A stretch of 64,000 bases of DNA from Candidatus Gottesmanbacteria bacterium (GTDB lineage: Bacteria > Patescibacteriota > Microgenomatia > UBA10105 > UBA927). Shown one piece after another: positions 2,446-53,097 of this stretch. The notes under the pieces were generated by a model that saw only the letters and a list, made by a program, of their open reading frames with translations, ran no database searches and was not told where the DNA came from. The position numbers were made by a program, and so were the translations under genes. The first letter of the stretch is position 1. The number at the start of each line of letters is the position of its first letter. Location: positions 1,925 to 65,924 of the forward strand of contig JAUXTO010000017.1 of assembly GCA_030679255.1 (NCBI GenBank). Reading direction: 5' to 3'.

Positions 2446-2612
2446 TATTGTCTTCCGACCCCGCAGAAGCCGCCAATATGGTTTTGACTTTTTGCAGGAT
2501 GGAGGGATATTTATTGTCACAACACATCAAAAGTCTGGAGGTAAAACACGCCAAAGAGGGTGGCTTCCGGGAAAACCTCCTCAAAAAACGCTTGGACTAT
2601 CGGAGAAAATAA
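2016..2612 (+). CDS. Four-helix-bundle protein (TIGR02436 / 23S rRNA IVP-like family) with four-helix-bundle suffix domain
   Basis: GYEYLIVY, EQVNGAARSNPQNVAEG, VANGSNEELAKDLEDYLRQRNL.IW.KD, EAANMVL, C-terminal EGGFRENL..R. Start could alternatively be 1974. Confidence 0.8.
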   Translation: MNTPMGQSRPGYEYLIVYMLGKVIQDLTFQFCQRFLKSPKDPTYPNFKLVEQVNGAARSNPQNVAEGYTGESLSSYIMLVGVANGSNEELAKDLEDYLRQRNLPIWGKDHPKVREFRAFRVFWLPNSPNSQSSPSSPNSLNTPILSSDPAEAANMVLTFCRMEGYLLSQHIKSLEVKHAKEGGFRENLLKKRLDYRRK

Positions 2613-2661
2613 AAAAACGTGCGTCGCATCCCTTCTCCTGCACTTTTTTTATCGAGAGAAA

Positions 2662-3228
2662 TCAAGAATGAGTTTTGATAAGAATCTTTTCGAGAAGCTC
2701 CGGGAATTGTTTATATTTATTCCCAGGGCATGTGGTCATACTGAAGTGTCCTTGACCCTTCACAACAACAAGCTCTGCTCCCAGAAGTTGTTGGAGTTTT
2801 CTCCCGTGCCATAATGGAACATAGGGATCATTATCCGAATGAAACAATACAAATTTCTTTGCCCTTCTCCGTATCGTATTCCATACAAATGGTTTAACAA
2901 ACATTTCTTTTACTGGAGGAAAATCCAAATCGTCGGTAAATCCGGCGATCAAAAAAGCTCTATCGATAACGACATCGTCTGGCAATGCTTCCAAAAGCCC
3001 CAAGATTGCAACTGCTCCGGATGAATGACCAACAATAATTGACTCGTGATCAAGCTTCCATTGGGAAAAAATGAATTGATTATAGCGTTCGATGTTAGGT
3101 GTTTCAGCCCCTGGTAAATTTGGCGCCCATACGCGATAATTCCGATTTTCTAATTCTTTTTTCAACCACGGTATCCAGTTTCTCGTAGCATCATTGGCGG
3201 TTCCGTGGAGAATAAGTGCATTTTTCAT
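2662..3228 (-). CDS. Alpha/beta serine hydrolase, RBBP9/YdeN family
   Basis: ILHG, NWIPWLK, VGHSSG nucleophile elbow, HSDNDPYVP, GHF. Confidence 0.85.
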   Translation of the reverse strand: MKNALILHGTANDATRNWIPWLKKELENRNYRVWAPNLPGAETPNIERYNQFIFSQWKLDHESIIVGHSSGAVAILGLLEALPDDVVIDRAFLIAGFTDDLDFPPVKEMFVKPFVWNTIRRRAKKFVLFHSDNDPYVPLWHGRKLQQLLGAELVVVKGQGHFSMTTCPGNKYKQFPELLEKILIKTHS

Positions 3229-3401
3229 ATGCCTTTTTGTATCGACGCAATGTTTTGTCTTTGTTCCTGTCTCTTATACAAATATTGACGAATTGCCTCC
3301 CGAATAAATTCGCTCCTGGTTTTCGATTGCTCTTTAGCAAGGCGATCCATCTGACGTAAAAGGGTTGTAGGGATGGAGAAATTTATCATTTGTGTATCCA
3401 T
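3225..3401 (-). CDS. Ribbon-helix-helix (CopG-like) regulator, 58 aa
   Basis: Manual translation (below ORF-track cutoff): MDTQMINFSIPTTLLRQMDRLAKEQSKTRSEFIREAIRQYL...; the stop overlaps the hydrolase ATG (ATGA). Confidence 0.8.
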   Translation of the reverse strand: MDTQMINFSIPTTLLRQMDRLAKEQSKTRSEFIREAIRQYLYKRQEQRQNIASIQKGI

Positions 3402-39971: not shown

Positions 39972-42179
39972 ATGAAACCCACACAAACAAATTCCAAGCT
40001 TCTTACGCCCAAAAAAAAACTGCCCCGGTGGACGAAATATTTTTTTTGGCTTTTGCCCATTGGACTTGTCCTTGTCTCGTACCTCCTTATCCTCAAAGAC
40101 CTCCCTTCTCCCACCAAGCTTGGGAATTATGACGTCCCGGTCGCAACAAAAGTTTATGACCGCAACGGACATTTGCTCTACGACATCTTCGCCGACCAAA
40201 ACAGATCTCCGATACCACTCGCCCACATCCCTAAATATCTCCAACAGGCAACCATTGCCATCGAAGATAAAGATTTTTACCGGCACGGAGGGATCAGTCC
40301 GGTGGGCGGCATGATCCGAGCAATAGTCGCCTCCGTCACGCGAAACAAACTCCAGGGCGGTTCAACGATCACCCAACAGCTTGTTAAATCAGCACTCTTA
40401 ACTTCTGAGCGCACCGTCACGCGTAAAATTAAAGAAATCATCCTCGCCTTTTGGGTCGAAATCCTCTACCCCAAAGATAAAATCCTTGAGATGTATCTCA
40501 ACCAAGTCCCCTATGGGGGTACGGCATGGGGCATAGAAACCGCATCAGAAAAATATTTCGGAAAATCCGCAAGTGAATTGACGCTTGCCGAAGCCTCACT
40601 TCTTGCCGGTCTTCCCCAGGCACCAACGCTCTATTCGCCCTACGGTGCCCATCCGGAATATGCCAAGACCCGCCAAAAAGAAGTGCTCCGCAGAATGGTC
40701 GAAGACCGCTATATCACGCAAGAAGAGTCCGACGCTGTCGACGCACAAACGCTCATCTATAAAAACGCACCGAACATCAAAGCTCCCCACTTTGTCATGT
40801 ATGTCAAACAAGAACTTGTTGACCGATTCGGAGAAGCACTCGTGGAACGCGGGGGGCTCAAAGTCACAACGACCTTAGATCTCCCGCTCCAGGAATATGC
40901 CCAGGCGACCGTAGCCGGAGAGGTCAAAGACTTAGCGAGGCTTGCGGTGACCAACGGCGCCGCTCTCGTCACGAAGCCCGCCACCGGCGAAATTCTTGCC
41001 ATGGTGGGGTCTACGGATTATTTTGCCTCCCCTTCCGGAACGTTTAATGTGACGACCGCCCTCCGGCAACCCGGATCTTCCATCAAACCCATTAATTATG
41101 CCATCGGCCTGGAAAAACGCATCGTCACCCCGGCGACGATGTTTTTGGATATTCCGACGTGTTTTAAAAACTTTGACCAGCCCAATTACTGCCCCAAAAA
41201 TTATGACGGGAAATTCCGCGGTCCTGTTCAGCTCCGGCTGGCGCTCGGAAACTCTTACAATATCCCGTCCGTCAAAATGCTGTACCTCAACTCAGTCCGC
41301 GATATGGTGGCTTCGGCGAGCGCCTTCGGCTTGGATACCCTCACTGATGCTGACCGCTATGGACTCTCATTGGCCCTTGGCGGTGGCGAGGTTCGCATGA
41401 CGGATATGGCCGAAGCATTTGGAGTGTTTGCAAATGGCGGAATACGCAAAAATTTAGTATCAATCCTGAAGGTCGTAGATAAACAAGGCTCCGTGCTCTT
41501 TGAATATAAAGATCCAAATCTCCAAAAAGAAATCCCTTCCCAACTCTTGCTCCAGGGACCACGGGCGGTAAGCGCGGAAACCGCATTTCTCATCTCGCAC
41601 ATACTTCTCGACAACAATGCGCGCCAGGATTCATTCGGTCCCCGTTCTAATCTCTATATTCCCAATCATGCCGTATCCGTCAAAACCGGCACCACGGATG
41701 ACCTCCGGGATAACTGGACCATCGGATTTACCCCTCAGGTGTTGGTAGCGGCTTGGGTCGGCAACAACGATAATTCAAAAATGAATCAAGCGCTTGTCTC
41801 CGGCGTGACCGGAGCCGCTCCCATCTGGAACAAGATTATGACACAAACACTAAACGGAAAGCCCGATGTGTGGCCCAAGCAGCCCGACGGCATCGTCGGA
41901 TCCCAAATCTGTGCGGTTTCCGGACTTCAGGCGCCCAACCCTGATGGCGAGGACAAAGGATGTCCAATGCGATTTGAATATTTTATCAATGGAACCGTAC
42001 CCAAGGAACGTGAAAATCTGAAGCGTTCGGTACTCATAGATAAAGAAACCGGCGATCTAGCACCCGCCGGTAAAACAGACAATGTGGAAATGCAGGAACA
42101 CACCGTGCTCTCCGATGGTATATCCACCTATTGCTTGGACTGCCCGCACGCGGAGGGCAGGGCTATATTAATCAAATGA
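39972..42179 (+). CDS. Class A penicillin-binding protein (PBP1A-like), paralog 1
   Basis: EDKDFY.H.G, QGGSTITQQ, RKIKE, RQPGSSIKP, S.N, KTGTT. Confidence 0.95.
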   Translation: MKPTQTNSKLLTPKKKLPRWTKYFFWLLPIGLVLVSYLLILKDLPSPTKLGNYDVPVATKVYDRNGHLLYDIFADQNRSPIPLAHIPKYLQQATIAIEDKDFYRHGGISPVGGMIRAIVASVTRNKLQGGSTITQQLVKSALLTSERTVTRKIKEIILAFWVEILYPKDKILEMYLNQVPYGGTAWGIETASEKYFGKSASELTLAEASLLAGLPQAPTLYSPYGAHPEYAKTRQKEVLRRMVEDRYITQEESDAVDAQTLIYKNAPNIKAPHFVMYVKQELVDRFGEALVERGGLKVTTTLDLPLQEYAQATVAGEVKDLARLAVTNGAALVTKPATGEILAMVGSTDYFASPSGTFNVTTALRQPGSSIKPINYAIGLEKRIVTPATMFLDIPTCFKNFDQPNYCPKNYDGKFRGPVQLRLALGNSYNIPSVKMLYLNSVRDMVASASAFGLDTLTDADRYGLSLALGGGEVRMTDMAEAFGVFANGGIRKNLVSILKVVDKQGSVLFEYKDPNLQKEIPSQLLLQGPRAVSAETAFLISHILLDNNARQDSFGPRSNLYIPNHAVSVKTGTTDDLRDNWTIGFTPQVLVAAWVGNNDNSKMNQALVSGVTGAAPIWNKIMTQTLNGKPDVWPKQPDGIVGSQICAVSGLQAPNPDGEDKGCPMRFEYFINGTVPKERENLKRSVLIDKETGDLAPAGKTDNVEMQEHTVLSDGISTYCLDCPHAEGRAILIK

Positions 42180-42182
42180 ATT

Positions 42183-42292
42183 AATCCGACCAATTTACCA
42201 ATCCGACAAATGAATAATCCAATGACGTAATGATTCAATCATTTTTCCTCATCGTTCCAATAATTGGGTTATTGGTCTGGATTGGTCGGATT
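42183..42292. repeat. Intergenic element with 12-bp terminal inverted repeats and internal degenerate units
   Basis: AATCCGACCAAT (42183-42194) and ATTGGTCGGATT (42281-42292). Confidence 0.75.
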
Positions 42293-42347
42293 CCAACTAT
42301 TTTTCTGCTTGTATCCGACCCATAGTCTGTGGTATAACGCGTCCATC

Positions 42348-44678
42348 ATGCTTCCTAAACCAAAAAACATAAAAAGGACTACATCTGCACCGTCCCGACC
42401 GGTCGTTTTTTTTCTTGCGCTTGCCTATATTCTTATGGCTCTCGGAGATGGAGTACGGATGGGTTTTTGGTGGGTCATACGATTGATAATCGTATCCTAT
42501 AAAAAAATTTCCTTACAATCCCGTCCGGTCAAAATATTGGTAACAACGATACGGATGCGTATGCGCGTGGCAATAAGCGTCCGGAAGTTATTCCTCCGTC
42601 AATGGATACAACGGGTAATACCATCAACCAAACCGAAGAAATACGCACGCAAGAACAGACGATGGAACGACATACTTCCCAAATTTTCCCTACCGCAATT
42701 TATTGGGCTCCATCCACTCATGGTTTTCATCTTAGGATCTCTCTCAACGATATTTTTTATCGCGATTCCGCTCATTGCCTATCTCTGGCTCCGCTCTCTC
42801 CCGAACCCTACTCTCCTTACAGTCCGCGATCTTGATGTGACGACAAAGGTCTTTGACCGAAATGGGGCGCTCTTGTATGAAATTTACGCCGATCAAAACC
42901 GCACGCCACTTGCTTTGAGCGACATTCCAAAATACGTCATCCAGGCAACGATAGCCATTGAAGATAAAAATTTTTATTCCCACCAGGGATTTTCCCTCTC
43001 CGGCATGGCCCGCGCCGCACGGGAAACCATGCTCAAGGGCCGCGTTCAAGGAGGATCGACTATTACACAACAGCTCATAAAGTCAGCGCTCCTCACCCCG
43101 GAAATAAACGTTTCCAGAAAGATTAAAGAGATCATTCTCGCTTTTTGGGCAGAACGTCTGTACACAAAAAATCAATTATTAGAAATGTACCTCAATCAAG
43201 TGCCGTATGGGGGCACTGCGTGGGGTATAGAATCCGCGGCACAAACGTATTTTAGTAAATCGGCAAAAAACCTAACCCTCGCTGAAGCTTCACTTTTAGC
43301 AGGACTTCCTGCTGCTCCGAGCGAATATTCACCATTTGGCACGCATGTCGACCGGGCGTTTTCCCGCCAGGGAGAAGTGCTCCGGAGAATGGTCGAAGAC
43401 CGGTATATTACTGAATCTCAAGCCCGGGAAGCCCTCGCGCAGGAAATCCGCTTTGCAAAACCCCGGATCGGTATCCGCGCTCCGCACTTTGTCATGTATA
43501 TTAAAGAAATTCTTGAACGCCGCTACGGCCCGAGGCTCGTCGAACGCGGGGGCCTGCGAATAAAAACGTCGCTTGATCTGGGCCTCCAGGAACGTGTCGA
43601 AGAAATAGTCAATACCAATATTACAAAGCTTGCCTCCCTTCGCGTCGGCAACGGAGCGGCGATCGTCACGAATCCAAAAACCGGAGAAATACTTGCGATG
43701 GTCGGAAGCCGGGACTATTTTGATACCACGCGTGAAGGCAACGTCAATGTCACGGTTGCACACCGGCAACCAGGATCATCCATCAAGGTGGTGACCTATG
43801 CCGCCGCTATGGAAAAAGGGTTTACTGCCGGCTCAATTCTTGATGATAGTCCGGTTTCCTATCCGCAAATCGGTGCACCTGCTTATACCCCGGTCAATTA
43901 TGACAGTAAATTCCATGGCTTTGTGCCTCTCCGGTACGCGCTGGGAAATTCTTATAATATCCCGGCAATACGCACGATAGCCGCAATCGGCGTCCCGGCT
44001 GTCATCCAAAAGGGTCGGGCTATGGGCATCACTTCTTGGATCGACGAAAGTAGGTATGGACTCGCGCTTACGTTAGGCGGCGGAGAAGTCACTATGCTTG
44101 ATATGGCTTCAGTCTTTGGTACATTAGCAAATTTGGGAACGAGAGTAGAATTATTACCCATCACAGAGGTGAGCGATTATACGGGCAGAATTCTCGAAAA
44201 AAATAAATCAAACGAACGCCCACAGGCAGTCAAACCGGAAGTTGCCTGGATCATTGGAAATATCTTAAGTGATAATAATGCGCGGACTGCTGCCTTCGGC
44301 CCCAACTCGATGCTCGTCATCCCCGGTAAAACGGTGTCAGTCAAAACCGGCACGACCGATAACCTGCGGGACAACTGGACCATCGGCTACACGCCAAGCG
44401 TTGTTGCTTCCGTCTGGGTGGGAAACAACAACAACAGCCCGATGAATCCCTACCTTGTCTCCGGAGTTACCGGCGCCGCGCCGATCTGGAATGCCATCAT
44501 GACGGATATCCTCAAAGACCGACCTGATGAAACACTCCCGCGTCCTGACGGCGTCATCAGTGTCCCCTGCTACTATGGCCGCCCTGAATATTTTCTCATC
44601 GGTACCCAACCCACGAGCGGCCAGTGCGCTCCACTCCCTACACCACGACCAACCGAAAGTCCTACGCCTACTCCGTAA
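42348..44678 (+). CDS. Class A penicillin-binding protein (PBP1A-like), paralog 2
   Basis: Same transglycosylase and transpeptidase motifs; longer basic N-terminus. Confidence 0.95.
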   Translation: MLPKPKNIKRTTSAPSRPVVFFLALAYILMALGDGVRMGFWWVIRLIIVSYKKISLQSRPVKILVTTIRMRMRVAISVRKLFLRQWIQRVIPSTKPKKYARKNRRWNDILPKFSLPQFIGLHPLMVFILGSLSTIFFIAIPLIAYLWLRSLPNPTLLTVRDLDVTTKVFDRNGALLYEIYADQNRTPLALSDIPKYVIQATIAIEDKNFYSHQGFSLSGMARAARETMLKGRVQGGSTITQQLIKSALLTPEINVSRKIKEIILAFWAERLYTKNQLLEMYLNQVPYGGTAWGIESAAQTYFSKSAKNLTLAEASLLAGLPAAPSEYSPFGTHVDRAFSRQGEVLRRMVEDRYITESQAREALAQEIRFAKPRIGIRAPHFVMYIKEILERRYGPRLVERGGLRIKTSLDLGLQERVEEIVNTNITKLASLRVGNGAAIVTNPKTGEILAMVGSRDYFDTTREGNVNVTVAHRQPGSSIKVVTYAAAMEKGFTAGSILDDSPVSYPQIGAPAYTPVNYDSKFHGFVPLRYALGNSYNIPAIRTIAAIGVPAVIQKGRAMGITSWIDESRYGLALTLGGGEVTMLDMASVFGTLANLGTRVELLPITEVSDYTGRILEKNKSNERPQAVKPEVAWIIGNILSDNNARTAAFGPNSMLVIPGKTVSVKTGTTDNLRDNWTIGYTPSVVASVWVGNNNNSPMNPYLVSGVTGAAPIWNAIMTDILKDRPDETLPRPDGVISVPCYYGRPEYFLIGTQPTSGQCAPLPTPRPTESPTPTP

Positions 44679-45414: not shown

Positions 45415-45442
45415 TTGACACTGGGAAAATATATGGTATACT
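45415..45442 (+). promoter_or_regulatory. Sigma70 promoter of the arg operon
   Basis: TTGACA-16 nt-TATACT with extended -10 TG. Confidence 0.8.
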
Positions 45443-45461
45443 ACCCTTTACAATTCAATAT

Positions 45462-45771
45462 GGCGATGAAGGAGAAAGCCCTGAGCTAGTCGAAGGGCCT
45501 CGAGCTCCCGAGCCAGTTTCCGAAAAAATCCGAAAGGAAATTAGGAAACATATAAGGTAATCTTTATCTCTGTCAAGGCAAAGTCCCGAGCGAAGTCGAG
45601 GGGCTGACACAGAGGTTTTTATGTAGCCATTTTGGTCTACTCGGATTACGAAGAAGCGTGGCACCGCGTATATTGCTAAGCTAGTCCGTCTTTGGCGGAC
45701 GAAGCTTTAGCGAAGTCCGCCGCTTCAGGGTTTCACACACGGTTGTGAGATTCTGAACCGGCGGATTTTTT
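45462..45771 (+). ncRNA. T-box riboswitch leader (transcription antitermination), putative Arg specifier
   Basis: Antiterminator GAAGCG-UGGCACC-GCG (45653-45668) pairs with CGC-CGCUUC (45718-45726); overlapping terminator; short Stem I 45462-45514 with a GA/K-turn-like base and CGA at 45501-45503. Confidence 0.8.
45716..45771 (+). terminator. Intrinsic terminator of the T-box leader
   Basis: TCCGCCG-c-TTCAGGGTTTCACA...TGTGAGATTCTGAA-c-CGGCGGA-TTTTTT. Confidence 0.85.
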
Positions 45772-45784
45772 GTTGGAGAAAAAT

Positions 45785-46990
45785 ATGAAAAAAATCGTTT
45801 TAGCATTTTCGGGTGGACTCGATACATCATTTTGCGTGCCATATCTTAAAGAAAAAGGGTACGAGGTTTATGCTGCTACGGTCGATACCGGTGGATTTAC
45901 ACAAAAAGATATTCTAAAAATTAAAGATAGGGCAAAAGAGTTGGATGTCAAAAAACACTACGTTATCGACGGAAAAATATCTCTGTATGACAAGATAGTC
46001 TCCTACGTCATCAAAGGAAATATTCTCAGAGGCGGCGTCTACCCGCTCTGTGCCGGTCCGGAAAGAATTATCCAGGCGATAGAAGTTATAAAAATTGCAA
46101 AAAAAATTGGCGCACAAGCAGTCGCCCACGGGTCAACAGGAGCCGGAAACGATCAGGTGAGATTTGATGTGGCCATCCAAACGCTCGCGCCGGAACTGGA
46201 AATCATTACACCGATCAGAGAGCTGGGAATTACTAGAGGAGGAGAAGTCGCGTTTTTAGAAAAACACGGGATAGCCGTTGAAAAATCCTCGAAAGATTAC
46301 TCAATCAACAAGGGAATGCTTGGTACGACAATCGGCGGCAAGGAGACAAAAAACTCCTGGGAATTACCGCCGGACGAAGTGTACCCGACAGTCGTAAGCA
46401 TTGATACTGCTCCCAAAAACGGTGAGGAAATTATTATTTCTTTTGAAAAAGGATTACCGATGGCTCTAAATGGCAAACCGATGAGTGGAATAGAAATAAT
46501 GAATTATTTAGACAACCTCGGCGCCAAACATGGTGTAGGAAAAGGAATGCATTTGGGAAATACGATTTTAGGAATCAAAGGAAGGGTTGTCTTTGAAGCT
46601 CCAGCAGCCCTGATCCTCATCAAGGCCCATAAGGAACTGGAAAAACTCGTGCTCACAAAGTGGCAGTCATATTGGAAAGATAGTGTATCGGAAGCATACG
46701 GAAATTTTATCCATGAAGGATTGTATTTCGATCCGGTCGTGAATGATATTGAGGCAATGATTGATAGTAGCCAAACGGTAGTCACTGGTGACGTAAAAAT
46801 GAAACTTCATAAAGGAAACATCGTCGTCGTTGGCGTCAAGAGCCCGTATTCGCTTATGGATAAAAGCATCGCGACGTACGGCGAACAAAATCTTCTTTGG
46901 ACCGCGGCTGATGCGGCAGGTTTCAGCAAAATTTATGGGTTGCAAGGAGTTCTGGCGGGAAAGGCAAAAACGTTAGGAGGATCGATATGA
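45785..46990 (+). CDS. argG: Argininosuccinate synthase
   Basis: VLAFSGGLDTS, HGSTGAGNDQVRF, GIKGRVVFEAPA. Confidence 0.95.
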   Translation: MKKIVLAFSGGLDTSFCVPYLKEKGYEVYAATVDTGGFTQKDILKIKDRAKELDVKKHYVIDGKISLYDKIVSYVIKGNILRGGVYPLCAGPERIIQAIEVIKIAKKIGAQAVAHGSTGAGNDQVRFDVAIQTLAPELEIITPIRELGITRGGEVAFLEKHGIAVEKSSKDYSINKGMLGTTIGGKETKNSWELPPDEVYPTVVSIDTAPKNGEEIIISFEKGLPMALNGKPMSGIEIMNYLDNLGAKHGVGKGMHLGNTILGIKGRVVFEAPAALILIKAHKELEKLVLTKWQSYWKDSVSEAYGNFIHEGLYFDPVVNDIEAMIDSSQTVVTGDVKMKLHKGNIVVVGVKSPYSLMDKSIATYGEQNLLWTAADAAGFSKIYGLQGVLAGKAKTLGGSI

Positions 46991-47229
46991 AAGAATTATA
47001 TTTCTTTCTCCAAACAGGAACTATTCTCAAAACTCTATCACCAGCAGGAATGTTTATATCAATCGAAGAAGATGAAGTTGATGCTACGCGTGATTATGAA
47101 GTTGATGGCCTTTGGTGGTATGGAACCAAACAAAATCGTGAACGGACAATTTTATTTAGGCATCAAGTACCATTTGTAACAATCGTTTCAGAAAAAGAAG
47201 CATGGGAAAAAGCATTTAAAGTCGGATAA
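46987..47229 (+). CDS. Small hypothetical protein in the arg operon
   Basis: 80 aa; ATGA overlap with argG; AGGAGG RBS. Confidence 0.65.
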   Translation: MKELYFFLQTGTILKTLSPAGMFISIEEDEVDATRDYEVDGLWWYGTKQNRERTILFRHQVPFVTIVSEKEAWEKAFKVG

Positions 47230-47233
47230 ATAT

Positions 47234-48259
47234 ATGAAACTTAAAAAAATACCATCAATAGTCAAAAATGTTCCGTTGTCCGACGAGGTACAGGTCGGAA
47301 GGTCTATCGTGCCAGAAGAAGGACTCATTATTCTTGTGGAAGCGCTTGACGATGAAGGGAAAAATAATGTGCTGGAATTTACCACTGGCAGATTGGGAAA
47401 ACTGATAAAGGGCGACGTGGTGCCGGCCGTACTCGGAAAAAGAAGGGCCCTCAAAGAATTTGCCGGTGACATACCGCAGGCACTCAAGCCCGGCGATGAG
47501 TTGTATTGGCTTTGTGAAAGCGGACTCGTGGGAGAAATAGTCGGCGTCAACGAGCGCTGGGGAACGCCCATGAAAGTAAAAGTATTGGGAGCCTTGCTTC
47601 ATCACGGAAAAACGCTCAATATTAAACATTCCGCTATTCCCTGGCAAAATGATGTTGTCAAAAGCGCTCCGATTGTGGCGGTTCTCGCCACCTGTATGGA
47701 TTCGGGCAAGACGACGCTCGTTTGTAAACTGGCAGAACACTTTAGAAATAATGGGTTAACCGTTATGGGTGCCAAGCTCACGGGAGTCGCGTTTATGCAG
47801 GATCCTTTTAAGATGAAAGATAACGGACTGGATACCGTTATGGATTTCGTCGATGCCGGGCTGCCTTCGACTTGCGGGAATGCTGAGGATGCGATCAAGG
47901 CCGCCTGTGGAATCATCACGGAATTGAACAACGGAGAGCCCGACCTCATCCTTGCAGAATTTGGAGACGGCATCATCGGAGAATATAACGTGGCGTCAAT
48001 TATCACCCATCCCTCTATCAAAAAACATGTTGTGATGACCGTGGTCGCCGCCAATGATTTGATGGCCGCCTGGGGAGCAAAAAAGAAAATGACGGAATTA
48101 GGATTCACGATCGACATGCTTACCGGACCGGTCGCCAACAGTCACGTCGGCGTTGAGTATATCGAACATAATTTCGGGATACCGGCCGAAAGCAATCAAC
48201 ACGCCATCCCCAAAACAATCGCCATTTTGGAAAAGAAAATGAAGGAGGCAAGTGTATGA
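47234..48259 (+). CDS. DUF1611-like P-loop protein
   Basis: LG.RRAL..FAG, TCMDSGKTT (Walker A-like), GAKLTG, DFVDAGLPST, EFGDG. Confidence 0.72.
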   Translation: MKLKKIPSIVKNVPLSDEVQVGRSIVPEEGLIILVEALDDEGKNNVLEFTTGRLGKLIKGDVVPAVLGKRRALKEFAGDIPQALKPGDELYWLCESGLVGEIVGVNERWGTPMKVKVLGALLHHGKTLNIKHSAIPWQNDVVKSAPIVAVLATCMDSGKTTLVCKLAEHFRNNGLTVMGAKLTGVAFMQDPFKMKDNGLDTVMDFVDAGLPSTCGNAEDAIKAACGIITELNNGEPDLILAEFGDGIIGEYNVASIITHPSIKKHVVMTVVAANDLMAAWGAKKKMTELGFTIDMLTGPVANSHVGVEYIEHNFGIPAESNQHAIPKTIAILEKKMKEASV

Positions 48260-49296
48260 ACAAGCATATAAAACATTTCTATTCGGCACTTGATTATTCG
48301 TCGTCCGAAATACAATATCTCGTCAATCTTGCGCTCAAAATGAAATCCGGATCGGTAAAGAAATCGCTCGCCGGAAAAACACTTGGCATGCTTTTCTTTA
48401 ACCCATCGCTCAGAACCAGGGTTTCTTTTGCCGTCGCGATGCTAAAACTTGGCGGATGTGCCATAGATTTGCCAATCAAGGAAAGTTATACGTTTGAATA
48501 CGGCAATGGAATAGTTATGGACAAGAGCACCATTGAACACGTCAAGGACGCGGCTGGGGTGCTCTCCCGCTATTGTGATGCATTGGCAATCAGATCAAGC
48601 GACCTTATCACGACATCATCGGACAGTGTTGAGGTATCCAGTTGGGAAATGTTGAAAAAAGATACCGTTATCAAAAAATTCATGGAGTATGCCACCGTAC
48701 CGGTCATCAATATGGAATCCAACGTCTACCACCCATGCCAGGGTCTGGGAGACGCTTTGACGATCAAAGAAAAATTGGGAAATCCTAAGGGGAAAAAATA
48801 TGTACTCACGTGGGCCTATCATCCCAAAGCGCTCCCCATGGCAACCCCCAATTCTCAAATACTCGCCGCCTGCGACCTGGGCATGGACGTTGTCATCGCC
48901 AATCCTCCGGGCTGGGAGCTGGAACCATCGATAATAAACGCCATGGCGCTCAGAGCCAAACAAAGTGGCGGCTCGCTTGCCTTCAGTGATTCTATGAATG
49001 AAGCAATTAAGGGAAGCGACGTGGTTTGCGCCAAAAGCTGGGGAGCATTAAAATGCTATGGTAATTGGTCAGAAGAAAAAAAATTAAGAGATCAGCTAAA
49101 ACATTGGATCGTGACCAAAGAAAAAATGTCACTCACTCATCACGCCCTCTTTATGCACTGCTTGCCCGTCAGAAGAAACGTGGAGGCAACCGAAGAAGTA
49201 CTCGATAGTAAAAATTCAGTCATCCTGGATGAAGCGGAAAATAGAATGTGGGCCCAAATGGCGATACTCGAAACAGTATTAGGAGAAACAGTATGA
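48256..49296 (+). CDS. argF: N-acyl(acetyl/succinyl)-ornithine carbamoyltransferase (ArgF')
   Basis: FFNPSLRTR, EHVKD, INMES..HPCQ, WAYHPKALP, KSWG, HCLPVRRNVE, EAENR. Confidence 0.88.
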   Translation: MNKHIKHFYSALDYSSSEIQYLVNLALKMKSGSVKKSLAGKTLGMLFFNPSLRTRVSFAVAMLKLGGCAIDLPIKESYTFEYGNGIVMDKSTIEHVKDAAGVLSRYCDALAIRSSDLITTSSDSVEVSSWEMLKKDTVIKKFMEYATVPVINMESNVYHPCQGLGDALTIKEKLGNPKGKKYVLTWAYHPKALPMATPNSQILAACDLGMDVVIANPPGWELEPSIINAMALRAKQSGGSLAFSDSMNEAIKGSDVVCAKSWGALKCYGNWSEEKKLRDQLKHWIVTKEKMSLTHHALFMHCLPVRRNVEATEEVLDSKNSVILDEAENRMWAQMAILETVLGETV

Positions 49297-50789
49297 AAAA
49301 ACCTAACCTTGTGACCGCGGGATTTATCGTTTCAGAAAAACAATTAGCGCTGGACCACCAGATGGTGTCGTATGATATCTGGGGGACACTGGCGCATGTC
49401 CTTATGCTCTATAAAGAAAACATTCTTAAGAAAGAGTTCGTCAAGCCCATCCTTCAAGCGCTCACTGATATACAAAAAGAAGTGGATGCGGATCAGTTCA
49501 CGATCGACCCAAAAAAAGGAGCGCAACTTTCTCTGGAAGCAAAAATTGTGGAAAAAGCGGGAGATGCCGGATATAGCGTGCACACCGGAAGGAGTAGAAA
49601 CGATCAAGTGATGGTGACCGAACAGCTTTATCTTCGCGACACAATGATCGGGCTCATTGAAAACACGCAGCCAGTTCTTGCGGCACTTCTATCACTCGCA
49701 AAAAAACATCAAGGAACGGTTATGCCGGGCTACACACATATGCAACCGGCCAAGGCAACAAGTTTTGGCCAGTGGGCACTTGCGTATCTTCATGGATTTA
49801 CGAGAGCAATAAAAACCATTACGGACCAATACGAAACGTATAATCTCTGTCCATTGGGTGCATGTGAATCCTATGGAACGAGCTGGCCGCTCGACCGCAC
49901 CTATACCGCGGACCTTCTTGGTTTTCCCAAGGTTTGGGAAATACCGCAGGATGTCGTATCGTCCAGAGGATTTGTGCAACTTGGATATCTGACGGGCATG
50001 CGGGACATCTGCCTGGTAGCGAGTAAACTTGCCCAGGATCTCCTGCTGTTTACGACATTTGAATACGGCATGATAAATCTTGGAGACGACGTCGCTCAGC
50101 GTATGCATCCAATTACCGGTTCGTCCGTCATGGCACAAAAGAAAAACCCTGACGCGTTGGAACTCGTGCGCGCAACAGCACCCCAACTCATAGGATTCAC
50201 GTCGATAGTTGGTAATATTCTGTCCGGGTTACCCATGGGATATAACCGGGATAGCCGCGAGGTGAAAGAATATATTGACCTGGGATTATCAAAAACATTA
50301 TCTATGGTGGGGACGCTTGCATCCGTACTCGCGAGCCTGACGGTCAACAAAAAAAGAATGATGGAATTGGTCACCGCAAACTATTCGATGACGACGGACG
50401 TAGCCGATGCTATCTCGCAGTCATCCGGCGTGGGATACAGGCTTGTCTATAAAGTAGTAGGCCAGGTCGTGGACGAATCCATGAAACGCGGAAAACTTCT
50501 GTCTCTTATATCTGCTCAGGATATTATGAAAAAAGCGTCTACGCTAGGCATTACGCTTCGTGTGACGAACACACAACTCAAAGACGCCATGGACCCACAG
50601 AGGGCGCTTGAAAAGCGGACACACATCGGAGGAAGTACCAAAAAAACCATGGCGATATCTCTTGCACACGGACAAACGTTTATCCACGACGCACGCAAAT
50701 GGGTATCGACCAAAAAACAGATGGTGAGCAATGCAAAATCAAAAACATGGGCTATTGCAAAAAAAATTATTGAGGAAGGAACTCTATGA
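49293..50789 (+). CDS. argH: Argininosuccinate lyase
   Basis: HTGRSRNDQ, MPGYTHMQPA, GSSVMAQKKNPDALELVR, GLPMGYNRD. Confidence 0.92.
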   Translation: MKKPNLVTAGFIVSEKQLALDHQMVSYDIWGTLAHVLMLYKENILKKEFVKPILQALTDIQKEVDADQFTIDPKKGAQLSLEAKIVEKAGDAGYSVHTGRSRNDQVMVTEQLYLRDTMIGLIENTQPVLAALLSLAKKHQGTVMPGYTHMQPAKATSFGQWALAYLHGFTRAIKTITDQYETYNLCPLGACESYGTSWPLDRTYTADLLGFPKVWEIPQDVVSSRGFVQLGYLTGMRDICLVASKLAQDLLLFTTFEYGMINLGDDVAQRMHPITGSSVMAQKKNPDALELVRATAPQLIGFTSIVGNILSGLPMGYNRDSREVKEYIDLGLSKTLSMVGTLASVLASLTVNKKRMMELVTANYSMTTDVADAISQSSGVGYRLVYKVVGQVVDESMKRGKLLSLISAQDIMKKASTLGITLRVTNTQLKDAMDPQRALEKRTHIGGSTKKTMAISLAHGQTFIHDARKWVSTKKQMVSNAKSKTWAIAKKIIEEGTL

Positions 50790-51889
50790 GCACACAAACA
50801 TTACTTACTCGTCTCGTAAAGATTCCGTCATATTCCGGCCAGGAACGCGCATTGGCCGCTTTTATCATGGACTGGGCCAGTGCCCACGGTATGCAAACTA
50901 TATTGCAACAGGGCAATGTCATAATTCCATTTGCGGCGCATGCAAACAAGGCGTTAATCTTTAACGCGCACATGGACACGGTGAAACCCGGACAGGAAAA
51001 CCTCTGGACCTATCCTCCATCAGGACAAAACGCCGGTGTCGTAAAGAACGGAAAATTATATGGATTAGGCGCAAGCGATGACAAAGCTGCGATCGCGTCA
51101 TTCCTACTGTTGGCGTTACAACTCCAAGCGTCTCCCCCGCCCATAGATGTGTTTATTGTTTTTGTGACAGGCGAAGAAACGGACGGATCGGGAAGTCAAT
51201 CGTTTGTACAGTATTTTCAAAAAAAATATGCTACGAAGTACCAAAAAGTGGCAGCCATTATCGGCGAACCCACAGACCTTCAAACGATAGAAATTGGTCA
51301 CAGGGGTAATATGTTCTTACAAATTACGACACAGGGCGATGCTGGCCATGGATCTCAACCAAAAAATATCAAGACCCATGCCGTTATAGAAAACATAAAA
51401 GCGATTGAAAAAATTGTTTCGTTGGAAAAATCGTTCATCAATAAATTTTCCGATCCAATACTCGGTAGTCCATCATGTTGTTTAACGGGCATACAAAGCG
51501 ACACTTCATCACCAAACTCAGTGTCTTCCACCTGCTCATCACTGTGGGATGTCAGAACGACCCCAAAAATACATTCCGAAGTTATTCCTCTCATGCAGAA
51601 AGCGCTGGGAAAAACCGTTGAAATAACCCTCGTTGGGAAACCCGCGTCCTTTGGGTTTACCAAGCCGGATTCTAAAATCGTAACAAAACTCAAGGAGCTT
51701 ATTCCGAGTGTGAAGGTTGCCATCTCCCCCGGCTCCAATGACATTTGTGCCTTTACTGCCGCAGGAATCAGCGCTGTTACATTTGGACCCGGCCAAAAAG
51801 ATACTATACATAAACCCGATGAGTACGTACAATTACAAAAAATTGACGATGCAGTTGATGTATATAAACAGCTCATCTACTCGTGGTAA
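50786..51889 (+). CDS. M20 metallo-deacylase (ArgE/DapE-like)
   Basis: FNAHMDTV, LYGLGASDDK, GEE, IIGEPT, FGPG....IHKPDE. Confidence 0.88.
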   Translation: MSTQTLLTRLVKIPSYSGQERALAAFIMDWASAHGMQTILQQGNVIIPFAAHANKALIFNAHMDTVKPGQENLWTYPPSGQNAGVVKNGKLYGLGASDDKAAIASFLLLALQLQASPPPIDVFIVFVTGEETDGSGSQSFVQYFQKKYATKYQKVAAIIGEPTDLQTIEIGHRGNMFLQITTQGDAGHGSQPKNIKTHAVIENIKAIEKIVSLEKSFINKFSDPILGSPSCCLTGIQSDTSSPNSVSSTCSSLWDVRTTPKIHSEVIPLMQKALGKTVEITLVGKPASFGFTKPDSKIVTKLKELIPSVKVAISPGSNDICAFTAAGISAVTFGPGQKDTIHKPDEYVQLQKIDDAVDVYKQLIYSW

Positions 51890-51893
51890 TGCT

Positions 51894-53066
51894 ATGAACA
51901 ATCTAAACAAGCTTCATCTATCCGGTTACGGTCGTGACTTTCTGCGGACGTGGGACAAATCCGCGGATCATCTTAAAGCCACGCTTGCTGTCGCCCAGAC
52001 CTTGCGCGACTGGCACCGCAAAGGAATATCACCAAAAGTTTTTTCCTCCAGCATGGCCGTCTCCATATTCCGCGATAAATCTACGCGCACAAAATACAGC
52101 TACTCTGCAGCGGCAAATTTACTGGGTCTGGAAATTGAAGACCTCGATGAAAAAAAGTCCCAAATCGCTCATGGGGAAACGATTATGGAAACAGTGAACA
52201 TGCTCTCGTTTCTTACGCGTACGATAGGCATCCGCGACGACATCTTTTTAGGGTTGGGCCACAGCTATATGACAGAAGTGGCCCTAGCTGCCGATTGGGG
52301 ATACGCCAATGGCGTACTCGACCAGCGCCCGAGTGTCATCAATCTCCAATGCGACGAGGACCACCCGACGCAATCATTGTCCGATCTTCTCCACCTCTCC
52401 AATTATTTTGGCGGGTTAGATAAGCTCCGTGGGAAAAACCTCACCATGAGTTGGGCCTACTCCCCTTCCTACGGAAAACCCCTGTCCGTGCCGCAGGGAA
52501 TTATTGCCCTCCTCCCCCGCTTTGGCATTAACGTAACCCTTTCCTATCCCAAGGGCTACAACCTCATTCCGGAGATTGAAAGCCTTGCTACGCGGGAAGC
52601 CAAAAAGGACGGCAGCACATTTCGGATCACCCATGACATGAGAGAGGCATTTATAGATGCAGACATCGTCTATCCCAAGTCATGGGCATCGTATGCCGTG
52701 ATGAGTCGCCGCACCGAGCTCTTGAAAAAAAACTATGTGAAGGGGCTTGAACATCTCGAGGGCGAAGCGCTCGCCCAAAATGCGAAACACAAAGACTGGA
52801 CGTGTACCGAAAAACTCATGAAACAAACGCGTAACGGTAATGCGCTCTATATGCACTGTCTCCCTGCCGATATCAGTGGCGTGAGCTGCAAAGAAGGAGA
52901 GGTTGATGCAAAAGTATTTGAAAAATATAAAAAACAAACGTATACCCAGGCCGGCTACAAACCGTATATTATTGCTGCCATGATCCTCCTCACCCAATTT
53001 GGAGAAAAGACACCGAAAATTCTCCGTTCAATCGGACAAAGAAACCAATCGGTCTTCAATTTTTGA
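51894..53066 (+). CDS. ygeW: Knotted carbamoyltransferase, YgeW family
   Basis: FRDKSTRT, SQIAHGET, IGIRDD, LQCDEDHPTQ, WAYSPSYGKPLSVPQG, YPKSW, HCLPADISGVSC, YKPYIIAAM. Confidence 0.88.
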   Translation: MNNLNKLHLSGYGRDFLRTWDKSADHLKATLAVAQTLRDWHRKGISPKVFSSSMAVSIFRDKSTRTKYSYSAAANLLGLEIEDLDEKKSQIAHGETIMETVNMLSFLTRTIGIRDDIFLGLGHSYMTEVALAADWGYANGVLDQRPSVINLQCDEDHPTQSLSDLLHLSNYFGGLDKLRGKNLTMSWAYSPSYGKPLSVPQGIIALLPRFGINVTLSYPKGYNLIPEIESLATREAKKDGSTFRITHDMREAFIDADIVYPKSWASYAVMSRRTELLKKNYVKGLEHLEGEALAQNAKHKDWTCTEKLMKQTRNGNALYMHCLPADISGVSCKEGEVDAKVFEKYKKQTYTQAGYKPYIIAAMILLTQFGEKTPKILRSIGQRNQSVFNF

Positions 53067-53097
53067 CTTTTAACTTTTGACTTTAGACTTTTGACTT
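53060..53097. repeat. Degenerate (TTTTGAC)5 heptamer run between convergent genes
   Basis: TTTTGACTTTTAACTTTTGACTTTAGACTTTTGACTT. Confidence 0.85.

Follow-up and report, generated by a model that had tools for sequence, protein, structure and literature searches.

Organization of the operon

We analyzed a 64,000-nucleotide window (contig JAUXTO010000017.1) from a Gottesmanbacteria-like genome, a MAG of 1.45 Mb in 44 contigs that is 94.98% complete and contains no N. We found seven open reading frames on one strand at positions 45785-53066, in the order argG–orf80–P-loop protein–argF'–argH–M20–ygeW, overlapping by ATGA at four junctions and separated by 4 nt at the other two, which agrees with the tightly coupled operon described in an earlier note on this DNA. 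The operon and its leader comprise the following features.

45415..45442, + strand: predicted sigma-70-like promoter, TTGACA-16-TATACT with extended -10 (11/12 matches; among the region's two best sites)
45457..45769, + strand: predicted T-box riboswitch leader for arginine, with a short stem I (26.4 bits against Rfam RF00230, E 0.0012, cut-off 93)
45501..45503, + strand: specifier codon CGA (Arg), invariant across 9 aligned leaders
45653..45727, + strand: antiterminator with UGGCACC bulge (unconstrained MFE fold of 45650-45731)
45712..45769, + strand: intrinsic terminator hairpin and U tract, mutually exclusive with the antiterminator
45785..46990, + strand: argG, argininosuccinate synthase (NF001770 and TIGR00032 above cut-off)
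46987..47229, + strand: orf80, small ORF of 80 aa matching no family
47234..48259, + strand: clade A P-loop protein, predicted ornithine N-succinylating enzyme (all-beta N domain and DUF1611/BioD-like SIMIBI P-loop domain)
48256..49296, + strand: argF', knotted N-acylornithine carbamoyltransferase (NF003384, 399.9 vs 288; succinyl-type I93/P194/E310)
49293..50789, + strand: argH, argininosuccinate lyase (TIGR00838, 340.6 vs 279.5)
50786..51889, + strand: M20 deacylase, predicted N-succinylcitrulline hydrolase (ArgE/DapE-like, 163.8, below the 217.6 cut-off; conserved within the operon)
51894..53066, + strand: ygeW, knotted carbamoyltransferase, predicted carbamoyl-phosphate supplier (TIGR03316, 571.8 vs 500; NF005538, 585.5 vs 453)

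All 25 listed NCBIfam models for named activities score the M20 protein below cut-off. The six long genes of the operon have dN/dS values of 0.06-0.22, and those of ygeW and the P-loop gene (0.09-0.15) are comparable to argG and argH. A second argG, fused to a CarB-like MGS tail, lies elsewhere in the host genome; the earlier note contained neither this gene nor the T-box leader at 45457-45769.

A predicted arginine T-box leader precedes argG

We found that the leader combines a UGGN bulge, competition between antiterminator and terminator, an arginine specifier and an N that matches the tRNA discriminator. The UGGC of the antiterminator bulge pairs with G73-CCA of tRNA-Arg, G73 is present in all five tRNA-Arg genes, and the host genome encodes tRNA-Arg(UCG), which matches the CGA specifier. 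Read by eye, the leaders of other lineages have CGT, AGA or CGC where CGA stands. The motif precedes the arg operons of relatives, and 2 of 11 related loci reach the RF00230 cut-off while the window leader falls below it (26.4 vs 93). The leader shares the bulge, the antiterminator/terminator switch and the specifier codon with the T-box riboswitches of RF00230, but its stem I is very short with inserted palindromic repeats and its score is far below the Rfam cut-off. Since an arginine T-box leader marks the operon as biosynthetic, this is almost certainly a biosynthetic arginine operon. We found no report of T-boxes in Patescibacteria in a literature search that lay mostly outside subscription journals. 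Very short arginine T-boxes, overlooked by Rfam, would provide native regulatory parts for Patescibacteria.

Genes for ornithine and carbamoyl phosphate synthesis

The earlier note saw no argA, argB, argC, argD, argJ, carAB or carbamate kinase gene in the window, and this absence extends to the whole host genome: no CPSase domain was detected, arcC, ArgJ, a class-III aminotransferase and a two-domain ArgA were not found, and tblastn found no argB, argC or argD. LysW, purine-catabolic, pyrB and pyrC genes were likewise not found by tblastn of the host genome. The two amino-acid kinases encoded there are both archaeal-type PyrH-like proteins and were rejected as ArcC or ArgB on that ground. No genes making ornithine or a YgeW donor were found in the host genome, no linked transporter was seen, and succinyl-CoA synthetase was not found; one 2-oxoacid:ferredoxin oxidoreductase is encoded.

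ArgF' carries a succinyl-type signature

ArgF' has I93, P194 and E310 where AOTCase has E92, N185 and K302, and does not match the acetyl signature; none of 44 linked ArgF' proteins has E92 or N185. It matches the SOTCase signature (A/S/P/V/Q92, P185, V/I/E302), with P and E exact and Ile at 92 a near match that the GapMind preprint accepts. H189, K191 and R306 correspond, through motif spacing only, to H176, R178 and R278 of the Bacteroides fragilis enzyme. These residues suggest that the acyl group is very probably succinyl and not acetyl; the acylation of ornithine put forward in the earlier note is narrowed to a predicted succinylation. Like the B. fragilis SOTCase and Xanthomonas campestris AOTCase pathways (PMC4581275), the operon encodes a knotted ArgF', a deacylase and ArgG/ArgH, whereas its genome lacks argB, argC, argD and CPS.

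Two clades of the P-loop protein family

The earlier note called the protein encoded directly after orf80 DUF1611-like. Its P-loop domain does have that fold, with Z 16.8 to 2g0t (rmsd 2.9, 178 aligned) and Z 15.0 to 7xrj (rmsd 3.1, 180 aligned), but the protein has no match to Pfam DUF1611 (PF07755), which two relatives match below cut-off. The domain is equally near dethiobiotin synthetase BioD (Z 16.0-16.4) and DUF1611 proteins (Z 15.0-16.8). Set against DgcN and other DUF1611 proteins (PDB 7XRJ, 2G0T, 2OBN), with which it shares this fold, it has 9-12% identity and an N domain that did not align; this predicted all-beta domain gives a best structural Z of 3.3, with DUF1611 entries absent among the matches listed. 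Foldseek returned generic SIMIBI GTPases only, among the matches listed, and a PDB sequence search found no solved relative. Residues G158-K159-T160, K181 and E242 are invariant in all 49 rows of the family alignment.

The GapMind preprint describes a family predicted to be an alternative N-succinylglutamate synthase, which means that an arginine role for such proteins, as glutamate succinylases, has been proposed before. The window protein appears to belong to this family (A0A127FCT3), as judged from context, structure and the ArgF' signature, and Figure S2 of the preprint may contain clade A members. The predicted synthase shares with the window protein a location in arginine operons, remote structural likeness to DgcN 7XRJ, a linked ArgF' with a residue other than Glu at 92, and a genome without ArgA; the window protein differs in being a clade A member uncoupled from argC, argB and argD in a genome unable to make ornithine.

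Quick trees were built for the P-loop family (without the partial proteins L049 and L050) and the YgeW family. Clade A forms a separate, well-supported branch (SH-aLRT 100), in which conserved K41/Y44 are replaced by variable residues and E75/E95 are gained. We found that clade A genes lie immediately upstream of argF' in 24 of 27 loci and near argC in none, while argC occurs at 16 of 19 clade B loci and at 70 of 80 metagenome loci of clade B. An operon with argB, argC and argD accompanies clade B and is absent genome-wide for the window protein. No Patescibacteria genome with clade A has a classical argC; matches are LysW-type lysine clusters or there are none, and the 'argC' matches of Roizmanbacteria-like genomes were rejected as such clusters. 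Because clade A is separate, has no argC nearby, is followed directly by argF' and is under purifying selection without argBCD, its P-loop protein likely succinylates ornithine; for the window protein we lean towards ornithine as the acyl acceptor. In favor of this, three of five Ktedonobacteria examined have ArgJ and ArgF' without OTC; Ktedonobacteria retain argB and argC, so glutamate may be succinylated there. These data divide a predicted ArgA-replacement family into two clades whose substrates are predicted to differ, and clade A occurs in culturable Dictyobacter, which is open to genetic work.

YgeW in arginine operons

We compared YgeW with 3Q98, judging active-site residues against Table 1 of PMC4581275, and found S71-T74, Q98, R122, D124, Q160, H165, Q168, S200, K203, K270, C330, L331 and K363 conserved. 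E. coli YgeW produces carbamoyl phosphate from 2,3-diureidopropionate (10.1101/2025.04.24.650524; PMC12507026). The window protein resembles the E. coli enzyme of the 2,8-dioxopurine/reductive urate pathway (PDB 3Q98) in both NCBIfam cut-offs and in carbamoyl-phosphate-site and second-substrate residues, but it is encoded in an arginine T-box operon, and the ssnA/hyuA/ygfK/xdh purine-degradation cluster and carbamate kinase of catabolic YgeW systems were not found in the host genome.

The linkage of the P-loop gene and ygeW with arg genes, whose absence, like a carAB or argABCD set elsewhere, the earlier note named as refuting, is conserved in the arg operons of relatives. Of the order's 87 genomes, 13 without carB have YgeW or a short sister enzyme next to arg/pyr genes, against 2 of the 29 that carry carB; most carB-less cases are close kin, with two genera dominating, so these counts are not independent. 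The carB and YgeW-family genes occur together in G092, G093 and G003, and arcC is found in 1 of the 87 genomes. On the single contig of G129, OTC and a short YgeW sister precede pyrB-pyrC-pyrD, where carB-bearing relatives place carAB. The order argG-argH-OTC-ygeW, with plain OTC standing for P-loop protein, ArgF' and M20, is found in G104 and also in G470, which belongs to a different family. Two different YgeW-family enzymes have been recruited to the arg-operon slot in several families.

There is precedent for such a supply, as a catabolic transcarbamylase supplied OTC in vitro and Thermococcus kodakarensis obtains anabolic carbamoyl phosphate from OTC (PMC13260591). That organism also lacks CPS and feeds biosynthesis through transcarbamylase phosphorolysis, but its donor is arginine or citrulline and its sink pyrimidines or hydrogenase; since arginine is the product of the window operon, the YgeW donor must be another ureide. 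YgeW is probably the carbamoyl-phosphate source of the operon, with substrate and direction deduced from context. The comparative data favor both predicted parts of the earlier note's route, acylation by the P-loop protein and supply by YgeW. This is qualified by the many Microgenomatia that share the P-loop–argF' core yet encode carAB without YgeW, and by some carB-less arg operons from which a second transcarbamylase is missing. Our literature search, mostly outside subscription journals, found no report of YgeW in arginine operons. YgeW-family enzymes gain a testable anabolic role, and a second, unnamed sister family is indicated.

A tentative route and its alternatives

Taking together the observed gene content, absences, signatures, linkage and purifying selection of the operon, we tentatively propose that arginine is made from two compounds scavenged from outside. 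One would be ornithine, which the P-loop protein would N-succinylate after import; the other would be a ureido compound, likewise imported, from which YgeW would release carbamoyl phosphate by phosphorolysis. ArgF' would then carbamoylate succinylornithine, the M20 deacylase would release citrulline and ArgG/ArgH would complete the route, with ATP use by ArgG pulling an unfavorable carbamoyl relay. Against this route stand the failure to find genes for ornithine, for a YgeW donor or for succinyl-CoA synthetase, the carB-less operons of G114, G121 and G123 with no second transcarbamylase, the genomes with both carB and a YgeW-family gene, and the YgeW beside arcC in G056. The route points to a specific cross-feeding dependency, on ornithine plus a ureide, in uncultured bacteria that have been regarded as devoid of amino-acid synthesis.

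We consider it rather doubtful that the P-loop protein is still an N-succinylglutamate synthase, with scavenged N-succinylornithine or citrulline as input, the gene kept for another reason or lagging behind the loss of argBCD, and YgeW perhaps supplying carbamoyl phosphate. The GapMind prediction assigns that activity to the family; clade B stands in the position of ArgA where a genome has neither ArgJ nor ArgA, G092 of the same family carries a complete clade B operon together with ygeW, and one clade A gene (L017) adjoins argB. The separate branch of clade A, the lack of classical argC in its Patescibacteria and purifying selection on the P-loop gene count against this reading. Citrulline salvage, in which ArgG/ArgH alone matter and the transcarbamylases are idle, or YgeW is detoxifying or catabolic and merely operon-linked, seems unlikely. 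It would suit the intact argH-argG-OTC-argS operons without carB and without a second transcarbamylase in G114, G121 and G123, a further such carB-less operon with a split argG in G071, the solitary YgeW of G498, the close YgeW adjoining arcC in G056 and the second argG of the host, but all six long genes are under purifying selection, two distinct YgeW-family enzymes were brought into the slot, and a catabolic YgeW without arcC gives no ATP.

Two further explanations are highly improbable. The likeness to dethiobiotin synthetase and the invariant P-loop residues would allow the P-loop protein, instead of YgeW, to phosphorylate carbamate with ATP in the manner of BioD and so make carbamoyl phosphate; this was rejected on the ground that 38 of the 46 genomes carrying the family also have carB, and in Ktedonobacteria carAB follow the P-loop gene within the same operon. 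Loss of carAB and argBCD from the assembly only is conceivable for a MAG of this fragmentation and completeness, but the syntenic place where members of the family normally have carAB, behind the atp operon, lies within an N-free 158-kb contig and retains no more than a CarB-like MGS tail, and three congeners also lack carB.

It is an improbable, broader extension of the tentative two-input route that Patescibacteria swapped carbamoyl-phosphate synthetase for a carbamoyl relay, in which YgeW-family enzymes would take carbamoyl from the purine-degradation ureides of neighboring anaerobes for ArgF', OTC or PyrB, and that the clade A P-loop protein would be a new enzyme class, a CoA-independent, ATP-driven succinate:ornithine ligase that, like dethiobiotin synthetase, would act via an acyl phosphate.

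A homolog search with orf80 returned nothing except its own fragment; at its position two same-genus relatives also have an ORF, whose likeness is confined to a short C-terminal stretch.

An arginine operon without carbamoyl phosphate synthetase

We found the operon as the earlier note had described it, with all seven genes present; four neighbouring pairs overlap at ATGA, and the other two are separated by 4 nt.

45457-45769, predicted T-box leader with specifier CGA, ahead of argG
45785-53066, + strand, operon of argG, orf80, P-loop protein, argF', argH, M20 deacylase and ygeW
47234-48259, + strand, 341-aa P-loop protein within this operon

ArgG, ArgF', ArgH and YgeW passed curated family cut-offs, the M20 protein was ArgE/DapE-like with a score under the cut-off, and a family profile search gave no family over cut-off for orf80 or the P-loop protein. 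Close homologs bearing names belong to Candidatus Gottesmanbacteria. The arrangement is real, conserved and under selection; dN/dS of the P-loop gene is 0.13-0.15 against two congeners, and the linkage of the P-loop gene, argF' and ygeW to arg genes is conserved across genomes. Upstream (39972-44678) lie two tandem class A penicillin-binding-protein-like genes.

The earlier note had reported carAB, arcC and argA-D/J missing from the window, and our search found none in the rest of the genome, an assembly of 1.45 Mb in 44 contigs that is 94.98% complete. Genome-wide, we found no CPSase, arcC, ArgJ, two-domain ArgA, arginase, class-III aminotransferase, argB, argC, argD, CtlX, ADI-like, LysW, purine-catabolic, pyrB or pyrC gene. 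In the five carB-bearing relatives whose locus was read, carAB lies 3' of the atp operon, 5' of pyrB, or both. Here that site is occupied by an additional argG that ends in a fused tail of 128 aa with 28-31% identity to the CarB C-terminal MGS domain. Since the syntenic site is assembled on a contig without N and holds only argG and this CarB-like tail, the loss of CPSase looks real. The fusion (L051:7948-9570, contig G000:C29) is the first gene of a cluster that continues with amidohydrolase, DHOD-like and aspartase-like genes, pyrF, pyrE, upp and pyrG and contains no pyrB or pyrC. Archaeal-type UMP kinase homologs form an adjacent divergent pair (L001:1426-2223 and 2535-3242, G000:C23).

A predicted T-box leader precedes the operon

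The leader is absent from the earlier note; a promoter-like site lies 5' of the T-box match. The match is weak (26.4 bits), and the Rfam cut-off was passed at 2 of 11 loci scanned. For 45650-45731 the structure of lowest energy is an antiterminator with a UGGCACC bulge; when a longer transcript is folded, a competing terminator forms instead. The motif also lies ahead of arg operons in Microgenomatia and Ktedonobacteria; the CGA specifier is invariant across nine aligned stem-I regions, and CGT, AGA or CGC was seen by eye at this position in other lineages. The genome encodes tRNA-Arg(UCG), and G73, found in all five tRNA-Arg, matches UGGC. T-box operons are induced by starvation for the cognate amino acid; by this logic, arginine starvation would induce the operon, ygeW included.

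Stem I is extremely short at L105:5430-5470 and L121:3320-3360 (a 4-bp hairpin with CGA in a 5-nt loop). Short palindromic repeats are inserted in the window's leader (45477-45497, 45584-45604, 45675-45717), a short tandem T-rich repeat lies 3' of ygeW (53066-53096), and two more T-box-like UGGN motifs occur in the genome (G000:C23:814, C38:4194).

YgeW and the source of carbamoyl phosphate

The window YgeW keeps all listed active-site residues of the E. coli enzyme, which, according to two papers that differ over which ureido group is cut, phosphorolyses 2,3-diureidopropionate to carbamoyl phosphate (CP). Among the order's 87 genomes, 55 contain a transcarbamylase, 29 carB and one arcC. Neighbourhoods were read fully in 31 of the 54 other transcarbamylase-positive genomes, and the rest were classed by score, length and position. 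YgeW occurs in nine genomes and a short sister clade in seven (SH-aLRT 96-97); of these 16, counts inflated by kinship, 13 lack carB and carry the gene beside arg or pyr genes, two contain carB, and one has the gene beside arcC. One genome (G104) has argG-argH-OTC-ygeW, which makes plain ornithine transcarbamylase (OTC) and the trio of P-loop protein, ArgF' and M20 interchangeable. In another, carB-less genome (G129), OTC and the short sister precede pyrB-pyrC-pyrD.

YgeW was found in 4 of 401 sampled Patescibacteria, and the other three all lack carB; their genes lie in a T-box-led argG-argH-OTC-ygeW operon, alone, and in a purine cluster. Eleven further genomes carry the window protein's branch of the P-loop family (clade A): nine contain carB, only one of them with a YgeW-family gene, and one of the two without carB has such a gene. 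The genomes G114, G121 and G123 count against YgeW as the CP source: their arg operons are intact, yet carB and a second transcarbamylase are both lacking.

The sister clade, which bears no family name, comprises ~330-aa knotted transcarbamylases in arg and pyr operons (L007:7362-8345, L104:9270-10250, L105:8547-9536), under all NCBIfam cut-offs. The canonical ssnA-ygfK-xdh-ygeW purine cluster at L237 (G368:C8) sits on a contig of 14 kb assigned to a Patescibacteria genome and may be a contaminant.

The P-loop protein and its substrate

The model of the P-loop protein is confident (pLDDT 93.6). The earlier note had called it DUF1611-like, and in the predicted model its SIMIBI domain does resemble DUF1611 proteins (2g0t, Z 16.8; DgcN 7xrj, Z 15.0), but dethiobiotin synthetases tie (Z 16.0-16.4) and no family exceeds its cut-off. 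The N-terminal domain is all-beta, and structure comparison gave no clear match for it. G158-K159-T160, K181, E242 and G244 are invariant in 49/49 aligned rows and resemble BioD's three motifs.

A GTDB scan yielded 46 loci of this family, 40 with argF', and a quick tree split them into two clades (SH-aLRT 100). Clade B shares its locus with argC in 16/19 cases, and in metagenomes in 70 of the best 80 of 262 matches. ArgJ was found in 0/19 clade B genomes, and two profile searches gave ArgA models over cut-off in 0/47 and 0/27. This context matches that of an alternative N-succinylglutamate synthase predicted in the GapMind preprint, which makes no mention of ygeW, carAB or Patescibacteria.

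At clade A loci argC is absent (0/27) and argF' lies immediately downstream in 24/27, the exceptions being a locus next to argB and two from cyanobacteria. Among 13 clade-A Patescibacteria genomes scanned, argC-like genes were absent from eight and only LysW-type in five. Clade A lost K41/Y44 and gained E75/E95, and the resulting change in charge may favour ornithine. Three of the five Ktedonobacteria tested have ArgJ and no OTC, so any free ornithine made there would have to be acylated again; as they retain argB and argC too, the P-loop protein may instead act on glutamate.

Clade A homologs also occur outside arg operons, in cyanobacteria and fungi (L027, L029; proteins P0117-P0120); neighbours at L029, a cyanobacterial locus, are an EctA-like acetyltransferase and a PLP lyase. 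LysW-type lysine clusters (lysX, lysY, lysZ, lysJ) were found at L052-L056 in Roizmanbacteria-like genomes, two with homocitrate-pathway genes.

A proposed route to arginine

The most likely route leads from scavenged ornithine and an external ureide to arginine. Ornithine would be succinylated, ArgF' would carbamoylate the product with CP from phosphorolysis of the ureide by YgeW, M20 would remove the acyl group, and ArgG and ArgH would finish the conversion by established chemistry. ArgF' I93, P194 and E310 align with positions 92, 185 and 302 of X. campestris AOTCase, and match the succinyl-type pattern described in PMC4581275; E92 or N185 occurred in 0/44 linked ArgF' proteins. The genome search found a 2-oxoacid:ferredoxin oxidoreductase and neither succinyl-CoA synthetase nor 2-oxoacid dehydrogenase E2, so acylation may depend on an acyl-CoA transferase or, equally, on an ATP-dependent ligase.

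In the literature, phosphorolysis is described as unfavourable (PMC6022934), an allantoate-to-citrulline relay was demonstrated in vitro (PMC4016543), T. kodakarensis puts OTC-derived CP to anabolic use (PMC13260591), and a review describes amino-acid synthesis as absent from Patescibacteria (PMC11665869). Every part of the system has precedent, and the link of the P-loop family to arginine is already predicted in print; our literature search found no paper on a YgeW-for-CarAB swap, the P-loop clade split or these T-boxes.

OTC is paired with a NodU/CmcH carbamoyltransferase in five carB-less genomes, a parallel in which a transcarbamylase adjoins a CP consumer. These O-carbamoyltransferase pairs lie within surface-polysaccharide clusters (L111, L113, L115, L116, L125), where OTC likely supplies CP from citrulline. 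In Daviesbacteria-like genomes (L020-L022, L030), arg operons stand opposite a convergent cluster of an arginine-deiminase-like gene, argS, M20 and CtlX.
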